NCBI RefSeq assembly: GCF_003334305.1
Contig: NZ_QOWS01000013.1
Reading direction: 5' to 3' (one strand)
Length of the DNA: 64,000 nt
From: Escherichia coli
Lineage (GTDB): Bacteria > Pseudomonadota > Gammaproteobacteria > Enterobacterales > Enterobacteriaceae
Part shown: positions 1 through 1,340 of the stretch, one piece after another
Layout: each line of letters begins with the position of its first letter
How positions within the stretch are numbered: the first letter of the stretch is position 1
Notes under the pieces: generated by a model
Seen by the model: only the letters and a program-made list of their open reading frames with translations
Databases searched by the model: none
What the model was told of the DNA's origin: nothing
Program-made: the position numbers and the translations under genes

Positions 1-108
1 GTAGCGCGGTGGTCCCACCTGACCCCATGCCGAACTCAGAAGTGAAACGCCGTAGCGCCGATGGTAGTGTGGGGTCTCCCCATGCGAGAGTAGGGAACTG
101 CCAGGCAT
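1..108 (+). rRNA. rrfD: 5S rRNA, 3' portion (5' end lies outside window)
   Basis: Sequence matches the E. coli 5S rRNA from about nt 13 to its 3' end (…GGGAACTGCCAGGCAT); followed by tRNA-Thr and a second 5S, as in the distal end of rrnD. Confidence 0.93.
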
Positions 109-120
109 CAAATTTAGCGT

Positions 121-196
121 GCTGATATGGCTCAGTTGGTAGAGCGCACCCTTGGTAAGGGTGAGGTCCCCAGTTCGACTCTGGGTATCAGCACCA
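121..196 (+). tRNA. thrV: tRNA-Thr (anticodon GGU)
   Basis: 76-nt cloverleaf sequence GCTGATATGGCTCAGTTGGTAGAGCGCACCCTTGGTAAGGGTGAGGTCCCCAGTTCGACTCTGGGTATCAGCACCA with encoded CCA end; GGT anticodon in the loop. Confidence 0.95.
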
Positions 197-233: not shown

Positions 234-353
234 TGTCTGGCGGCAGTAGCGCGGTGGTCCCACCTGACCCCATGCCGAACTCAGAAGTGAAACGCCGTAG
301 CGCCGATGGTAGTGTGGGGTCTCCCCATGCGAGAGTAGGGAACTGCCAGGCAT
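234..353 (+). rRNA. rrfF: 5S rRNA, complete 120 nt
   Basis: Second full-length 5S copy (TGTCTGGCGGCAGTAGCGCGG…CCAGGCAT) directly downstream of tRNA-Thr. Confidence 0.95.
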
Positions 354-364
354 CAAATAAAACG

Positions 365-399
365 AAAGGCTCAGTCGAAAGACTGGGCCTTTCGTTTTA
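365..399 (+). terminator. rrn T1-like rho-independent terminator
   Basis: GC-rich hairpin AGGCTCAGTCGAAAGACTGGGCCT followed by a T-rich tract, immediately 3' of the 5S rRNA. Confidence 0.8.
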
Positions 400-533
400 T
401 CTGTTGTTTGTCGGTGAACGCTCTCCTGAGTAGGACAAATCCGCCGGGAGCGGATTTGAACGTTGCGAAGCAACGGCCCGGAGGGTGGCGGGCAGGACGC
501 CCGCCATAAACTGCCAGACATCAAATCAAGCGA

Positions 534-568
534 AAGGCCATCCGAAAGGATGGCCTTTTTGCTTTTCG
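534..568. terminator. rrn T2-like hairpin terminator, also placed to terminate convergent yhdZ
   Basis: Hairpin AAAGGCCATCCGAAAGGATGGCCTTTTTGCTTTT; A-run on one side and T-run on the other, located between the rrn 3' end and the yhdZ stop. Confidence 0.75.
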
Positions 569-581
569 AACTAACATTCAA

Positions 582-1340
582 TTAATGGATTACCTGCGAT
601 AAAAATGCCCTCGTACGCTCTGATTTAGGATGCGCAAAAAATTCATCAGGTGCAGCTTGTTCCACTATCTCCCCACGATCCATAAAAATTACCCGGTCAG
701 CGACGGTACGTGCAAACCCCATCTCATGTGTTACACACAACATTGTCATACCCGACTGCGCCAGCCCAATCATCGTATCCAGCACCTCTTTCACCATCTC
801 CGGATCGAGCGCCGACGTTGGCTCATCAAACAACATAATTTTCGGCTTCATACACAGCGAACGCGCAATGGCAACGCGTTGCTGCTGACCACCAGAAATT
901 TGTCCGGGAAACTTATGCGCATGTTCGGCAATTCTCACCCGCTCAAGGTAATGCATCGCCAGAGCTTCAGCCTCTTTCTTTGGCATCTTGCGTACCCAAA
1001 TCGGTGCCAGGGTACAGTTCTGTAGAACGGTCAGATGAGGGAAGAGATTGAAATGCTGAAAGACCATTCCCACTTCCTGCCGGACGCGCTCAATATTGCG
1101 GATATCTTCATTAAGTTCGATGCCATCTACCACGATCCGTCCCTGTTGATGTTCTTCCAGATGATTAATACAACGAATGGTTGTCGATTTACCGGAACCT
1201 GAAGGGCCACACAGAACGATCCGTTCTCCCGGTTGCACGGTTAAATTTATATTTTTCAAAACATGGAATTGTCCATACCATTTATTGACGTTTTCCAGCG
1301 TAATCATCGCGTTAGCAGGTTGCAGTAAAATTTGGCTCAT
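582..1340 (-). CDS. yhdZ: Polar amino-acid ABC transporter ATP-binding protein
   Basis: 252-aa ORF with Walker [10 protein letters not shown] and ABC signature [13 protein letters not shown]; last gene of the yhdWXYZ cluster. Confidence 0.93.

Follow-up and report, generated by a model that had tools for sequence, protein, structure and literature searches.

The second terminator of the Escherichia coli rrnD operon, T2, probably serves as an asymmetric two-way terminator, closing rrnD on one strand and the convergent yhdWXYZ operon on the other. The hairpin folds stably on both strands, is homologous to the T2 hairpins of other rrn operons and has RNA 3' ends mapped at it on both strands. That polymerases arriving from yhdZ are released there, as opposed to their RNA alone being protected, we infer with somewhat better than even confidence. 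An earlier note on this DNA had proposed that a single structure ends both the rrn and the yhdZ transcripts and had named the mapping of 3' ends on both strands as the check. Such mapping has been published for K-12 MG1655, in which the sequence is identical here, and it gives the predicted result, with the 3' ends of both transcripts lying at T2 (Adams et al., 2021; Bar et al., 2023). Neither of the outcomes that the note had set against its proposal, yhdZ transcripts ending elsewhere or reading through into rrn antisense, is seen among the published K-12 ends.

The distal end of rrnD and its T2 hairpin

The window, by which we mean the whole 64,000-nt stretch of E. coli DNA that was analysed, starts at the distal end of the rrnD operon (Table 1). 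In the RefSeq annotation of an identical strain the plus strand carries 16S, tRNA-Ile, tRNA-Ala, 23S, 5S, tRNA-Thr and 5S genes, and the minus strand carries yhdZ, yhdY, yhdX and a yhdW-like gene, convergent on rrnD. With window positions 340-700 as query, AREA_497 matched at 100% identity and K-12 derivatives at 99.4%. K-12 MG1655 and the window share the same sequence over positions 431 to at least 597, and K-12 coordinates were obtained as 3423776 minus the window position, a conversion that was checked at 353 (the mature 3' end of rrfF, K-12 3423423) and at 582 (K-12 3423194). The stop codon of yhdZ occupies 582-584 on the minus strand.

Table 1. Features at the rrnD-yhdZ junction, in window coordinates
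Feature	Position	Strand	Basis or remarks
5S rRNA gene, partial	1-106	+	rrnD
tRNA-Thr gene	121-193	+	rrnD
rrfF, second 5S rRNA gene, last gene of rrnD	236-353	+	Rfam 5S_rRNA, 89 bits at 236-351; RefSeq annotation
T1, first rrnD terminator hairpin, near-palindromic, T-rich tails on both strands	357-400	+	Folding, scan, K-12 alignment
T1-T2 spacer, TLR-family element rrF, encodes the RrF small RNA	401-532	+	K-12 rrnA/B/D alignment; PMC8144298
30-nt direct repeat of the 5S 3' end and trailer	509-538 (vs 341-370)	+	90% identical
T2 hairpin, shared structure	533-558 (arms 533-543/548-558)	both	Folding, consensus scan, alignment with K-12 rrn operons
rrn-strand U-tract TTTTTGCTTTTC	556-567	+	Mapped RNA 3' ends 564, 567
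yhdZ-strand tail TTTCGCTTGATTTGA, interrupted U-tract	521-535	-	Mapped RNA 3' ends 532, 531, 530
yhdZ 3' UTR, about 50-53 nt	530-581	-	53 nt in Bar et al. Supp. Data 4
yhdZ, ATP-binding subunit, last gene of yhdWXYZ (amino-acid ABC transporter)	582-1340	-	ORF list, RefSeq

T2 lies 180 nt downstream of the last rrnD 5S gene and has an 11-bp stem with 6 G-C pairs and a loop that reads GAAA on the plus strand and UUUC on the minus strand. Its core of 8 G/C-rich pairs (GGCCATCC/GGATGGCC) folds alone at -19.0 kcal/mol on the plus strand and at -18.1 kcal/mol on the minus strand, the reverse hairpin thus being nearly as stable. In its sequence context the corresponding values are -24.9 kcal/mol (z = -6.0, 56-nt context) and -25.6 kcal/mol (z = -4.4), and no shuffle of the context was equally stable on either strand. 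A consensus scan found T2 to be terminator-like on both strands. A search of the window for the 30-mer AAAGGCCATCCGAAAGGATGGCCTTTTTGC gave a single match, at 533-562, against 0 matches in 100 shuffles. Searched against Rfam, the T2 hairpin and the spacer gave no family at gathering score, the spacer showing a weak sub-threshold match to RtT (440-483, 17 bits).

The hairpin that the earlier note placed at 534-568 is real and its stated end, 568, includes the second T run, but the string that it quoted starts at 533 and its first coordinate is off by one. Its description of this hairpin as the second rrn terminator is upheld by T1, which precedes it. The distance of 14 nt to the yhdZ stop codon given there fits only if counting begins where the T run stops; the gap measures 13 nt from 568, 19 nt from the last base of the 30-mer and 23 nt from the stem. 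Of the A/T runs reported on both sides, that on the 3' side stands, reading TTTTTGCTTTT (T5GCT4), but the 5' side has AAA only (533-535), preceded by AAGCG. T2 does not have the symmetric A-tract and T-tract flanks of the classic bidirectional terminators.

All seven rrn operons of K-12 were aligned at their distal ends and compared. In rrnA, rrnB and rrnD, T1 is followed by a spacer of ~132 nt and then by T2 with its invariant stem; in rrnG the T2 hairpin stands directly after 5S, and rrnC, rrnE and rrnH end in unrelated hairpins. The T2 copies of rrnB and rrnA share with that of rrnD an identical 8-bp G/C stem, the tail TTTTTGC, the position after T1 and a ~132-nt TLR spacer, and a preceding repeat of the 5S 3' end. 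They differ from it in the loop (TGAC there, GAAA at rrnD) and in the 5' flank (GCAGAAGG there, GCGAAAGG at rrnD). The rrnG terminator has the same hairpin and tail as rrnD T2; unlike rrnD in the window, it follows 5S without T1 or spacer and is the first and sole terminator of its operon. The stem match extends to Citrobacter and Superficieibacter. Both the stem sequence and the placement downstream of T1, the TLR spacer and the repeated 5S end identify the 533-558 hairpin as rrnD's version of T2, the classic second Rho-independent rrn terminator. The T1-T2 dual cassette of rrnB is used in many expression vectors.

Of the four K-12 operons with this hairpin, rrnA (mobB, beyond a REP element) and rrnD (yhdZ) face a convergent gene downstream, and rrnB (murB) and rrnG (kgtP) a co-directional one, so that rrnD is the only one of these operons at which the hairpin is directly abutted by a convergent gene. 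The idea that the hairpin evolved for yhdZ was rejected, since the rrn module is present in four K-12 operons regardless of the orientation of the neighbour; its A-rich 5' flank, a copy of the 5S trailer, also counts against this idea. Stem covariation was considered as structural evidence and set aside as uninformative, because the stem is invariant in all copies and the loop alone varies.

T1 folds at -35.4 kcal/mol (z = -9.3) on the plus strand and at -33.0 kcal/mol on the minus strand. The rrnD T1 of the window is identical to the rrnB T1 of K-12, and this identity across operons suggests that gene conversion between them may have taken place. Relative to K-12 rrnD T1 it shows a compensatory pair, G364-C393 (A-T in K-12), and A378 in place of G in the loop; the same rrnB/rrnD co-variation in T1 has been described by Cambray et al. 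(2013). The dual terminators of rrnA, rrnB and rrnD enclose spacers that are TLR-family elements for the small RNAs RrA, RrB and RrF, which arise from T1 read-through (Stenum et al., 2021, PMC8144298). The direct repeat at 509-538 provides the A-rich 5' flank and the first stem bases of T2. A plus-strand RNA terminus (K-12 3423260/61(-), window ~515-517) lies at this 5S-like repeat, AACUGCCAG (Bar et al., 2023, PMC10687069), and fits an RrF 3' end that is processed like the 3' end of 5S. The 3' flank of T1 (386-415) and the 5' flank of T2 (510-539) are 77% complementary over 30 nt, because of the direct repeat together with the T1 palindrome. In read-through transcripts these flanks could form an alternative pairing that brackets RrF.

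RNA 3' ends and tails on the two strands

In the data of Bar et al. (2023, PMC10687069), whose sequence-column register was verified against the thrL row, the value R is 1 minus read-through and compares read starts within ±3 nt of an end with those in the next 67 nt. On the rrn strand these authors list 3' ends at K-12 3423212/3423209(-), window 564/567, with R ~0.97, and annotate them as rrfF-yhdZ intergenic with a hairpin drawn. The ends lie at +9 and +12 past the G/C stem, inside the U-tract. Tails were scored with the TransTermHP function, the formula and the cut-off of -2.5 being taken from PMC1852404. The rrn-strand tail of T2, UUUUUGCUUUU, scores -5.09, in about the top 0.1% of 15-mers in the window. 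A stable G/C stem, a U-tract and in vivo ends inside that U-tract thus come together on this strand, and T2 is here, to all appearance, a strong intrinsic terminator, with factor-independent release argued by analogy with rrnB. The efficiencies of rrnB T1 and T2 are ~87% and ~100% (Orosz, 1991, as cited in PMC8144298), and the rrnB T2 stem is identical to that of rrnD.

T2 ends the RrF precursor. It should back up T1 and take the polymerases that read through it, with most rrn transcription stopping at T1. In the mechanism that we propose, about 1 in 8 polymerases would, by analogy with rrnB, read through T1 into the rrF spacer and would be released within the tail 9-12 nt past the stem. This release would close the rrnD operon and set the 3' end of the precursor.

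On the opposite strand a 'primary' yhdZ 3' end was mapped to K-12 3423244(+), window 532, with the sequence ...GGAUGGCCUUUC (Adams et al., 2021, PMC7815308, Supp. file 1, M63 0.4). It was called in one of the three conditions at low read counts and was absent from the two LB samples. 'Primary yhdZ' ends were also listed at 3423245/3423246(+), with R of 0.61, 0.67 or 1.0 depending on the dataset (Bar et al., 2023, PMC10687069, Supp. Data 2-4), values at which read starts are few over the following 67 nt. Taken together the ends (532-530) lie 4-6 nt past the G/C stem and 1-3 nt past the stem as extended by A-U pairs. T2 is thus flanked by convergent units whose ends, 564/567 on the plus strand and 530-532 on the minus strand, overlap across it by ~38 nt (window 530-567). 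It follows from this overlap that the yhdZ 3' UTR and the tail of the rrnD read-through transcript or RrF precursor are perfectly complementary.

The yhdZ-strand tail of T2, UUUCGCUUGAUUU, scores -3.83 against the cut-off of -2.5, a score matched by ~1.5% of 15-mers in the window, and is interrupted by CGC at positions 4-6. The tails of T1 score -4.31 forward and -4.38 in reverse. Hairpin and terminator scans found no separate yhdZ terminator in the 23 nt between the stop codon and the T2 stem, and the possibility that E. coli yhdZ has a terminator of its own was rejected, there being no terminator-like structure in its 3' UTR besides T2. The reverse of T2 is a plausible, if sub-optimal, candidate for an intrinsic terminator. 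A search of the literature found no in vitro or reporter measurement of T2 in the yhdZ orientation, a full-text search with the T2 hairpin sequence gave no match, and the yhdZ terminator receives incidental mention only, yhdZ being absent from the TERMITe supplements.

Two further observations concern transcription within the transporter operon. A transcription start is listed inside yhdZ at K-12 3423129, window 647 on the minus strand (Bar et al., 2023, Supp. Data 4), and the 53-nt 3' UTR of yhdZ has more read starts per nucleotide than the coding region, being an outlier in one of three libraries of the same study. This hints at a short RNA of ~117 nt on the minus strand, from window ~647 to ~530 (K-12 3423129-3423246), ending at reverse T2; inspection by eye upstream of 647 found no convincing sigma-70 -10 element. 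It might be imagined that pairing or collision with rrn read-through, by this RNA or by the mRNA of yhdZ, couples transporter expression to the rate of rRNA synthesis, an idea to which we give very little credence. A Rho-termination region is also recorded antisense to yhdW, at window ~4658 on the plus strand (K-12 3419118, minus strand; Adams et al., 2021, Supp. file 2), which implies an antisense transcript running in the rrn direction inside yhdWXYZ.

Release or protection on the yhdZ strand

Ends at +4 to +6 fit termination followed by slight trimming and fit also the class of protective hairpins; 3' ends seen at steady state on this strand do not distinguish termination from trimming back to the hairpin. 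T2 might then be a terminator for rrnD alone and, on the yhdZ strand, no more than a barrier to 3' exonucleases, with release taking place further on and PNPase or RNase II trimming the RNA back, a reading that we consider rather unlikely. Release would in that case come at reverse T1, or through Rho acting on the antisense RNA of the spacer, which is untranslated, or when polymerases from yhdZ and rrn collide head-on. Collision-driven termination between convergent genes has been proposed by the Liu laboratory. The ends lie nearer to the G/C stem than the usual 7-9 nt, and the tail is interrupted and weaker than both the plus-strand tail and the yhdZ terminators of other genera, all of which would suit a barrier. 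So would the quality of reverse T1, the better terminator by its tail and by its stability (-26.5 kcal/mol), and the trimming of Rho-dependent transcripts back to a protective hairpin, which is described by Dar and Sorek (2018, PMC6061677). The yhdZ side of T2 resembles the stem-loops of that class, as outlined there, in being a stable hairpin without a clean U-tract and with the 3' end immediately after it, but differs in that its tail is still U-rich (5 of the first 8 bases) and that the lists of Adams et al. (2021) gave no evidence of Rho dependence. In their bicyclomycin data, obtained in LB where the operon is weakly expressed, no Rho-termination region is listed downstream of yhdZ on the K-12 plus strand. 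Nor do Bar et al. (2023) list a K-12 plus-strand end at reverse T1, although this is weak evidence since rRNA-proximal sites may have been filtered. The scarcity of read starts over the 67 nt that follow T2 (R 0.61-1.0) argues against release further on, as does the tail itself, which still passes standard terminator criteria, and the ST131-type allele described below has no T1 that could act as the real terminator.

It might also be supposed that T2 has no role for yhdZ at all, that yhdWXYZ mostly reads through into antisense rrn and that the mapped ends are minor decay intermediates. The low expression of yhdWXYZ, the fact that Adams et al. called the end under a single condition out of three and the presence of the hairpin independently of the orientation of the downstream gene are compatible with this. 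However, two independent laboratories report the same dominant 'primary' yhdZ end in several datasets, with R up to 1.0, and we regard this reading as very improbable.

We therefore return to termination at T2 on both strands as the favoured reading. Transcription leaving yhdZ would enter the T2 palindrome 23 nt past the stop codon, where the reverse hairpin (loop UUUC, -18 kcal/mol) followed by its interrupted U-rich tail would stop a substantial fraction of polymerases. The yhdZ mRNA would then end 4-6 nt past the stem, probably after the trimming of a few nucleotides, and any polymerase that escaped would meet reverse T1, with its good U-tract, before transcribing antisense 5S.

Alleles, relatives and known parallels

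The arrangement seen in the window, with T1, rrF and T2, is present in 3245 of 5426 complete E. coli genomes (~60%). In the remaining ~40% the match, which overlaps the 5S gene, starts at window 509. An ST131 strain illustrates this second arrangement (L009, 690-795), rrfF being followed directly by T2 with 62 bp from 5S to the yhdZ stop codon, and T2 alone is likewise found in clone D i14 and others. This ST131/B2-type allele has the same hairpin and tail as the window but, unlike it, neither T1 nor spacer. It is missing exactly one 168-bp repeat unit (window 341-508, comprising T1 and most of the rrF spacer), as would be expected from recombination between the repeats. T2 is thus, as far as can be predicted, the sole rrnD and yhdZ terminator in ~40% of complete E. 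coli genomes, and T2-only strains would have no RrF small RNA encoded at rrnD. Natural variants of the tails also occur. In O157 Xuzhou21 the substitution T559A leaves UUUAUGC as the rrn-strand sequence (tail -4.21), and in the ST131 strain A528G changes the yhdZ strand to CGCCUGA (tail -3.65). Each variant weakens one tail, and the stem is unchanged in both.

The 3' flanks of yhdZ homologues were inspected in species-representative genomes with YhdZ. Three isolates of Enterobacter share the convergence of yhdZ on 5S, and there the gene has a canonical terminator of its own, a hairpin followed by T6-7 at ~10-60 nt past the stop codon, beyond which rrn has another terminator. The order in Citrobacter werkmanii and Superficieibacter electus is a REP-like hairpin that lacks a U-tract, then a T2-type hairpin and then 5S. 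The yhdZ homologues of Yersinia, Pseudomonas and Vibrio have canonical terminators of their own. The tails of these dedicated terminators, in Enterobacter, Yersinia, Pseudomonas and Vibrio, score from -5.2 to -5.8. Going by these flanks alone, the use of one shared hairpin is a trait of E. coli, Citrobacter and Superficieibacter and not a general one. The E. coli condition, with the rrn hairpin alone after yhdZ, fits T2 having taken over yhdZ termination.

T2 itself, two-way terminators between convergent genes and both of the mapped ends are already known biology. Schollmeier in 1985 reportedly described a bidirectional intrinsic terminator between the convergent tetA and orfL genes of Tn10, and a 2019 SEnd-seq study by Ju et al. 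is said to contain a catalogue of bidirectional terminator sites. Like these and like the bidirectional predictions of TransTermHP, T2 is one palindromic hairpin between convergent units, with 3' ends on both strands that overlap. It departs from the classic cases, which have symmetric A- and T-tracts, in the short, interrupted tract of its yhdZ side, and also in that one partner is no mRNA but the read-through tail of the most transcribed operon class of the cell.

As a natural two-way terminator with a strong face towards rrn and an imperfect one towards yhdZ, T2 could help to calibrate terminator models, and its behaviour in the reverse orientation may be relevant to users of rrn T1-T2 cassettes. 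Within E. coli, the two natural alleles, T1 with rrF and T2 as against T2 alone, offer a comparison for the prevention of antisense transcription into 5S, and beyond that the main value of the finding lies in correct annotation.
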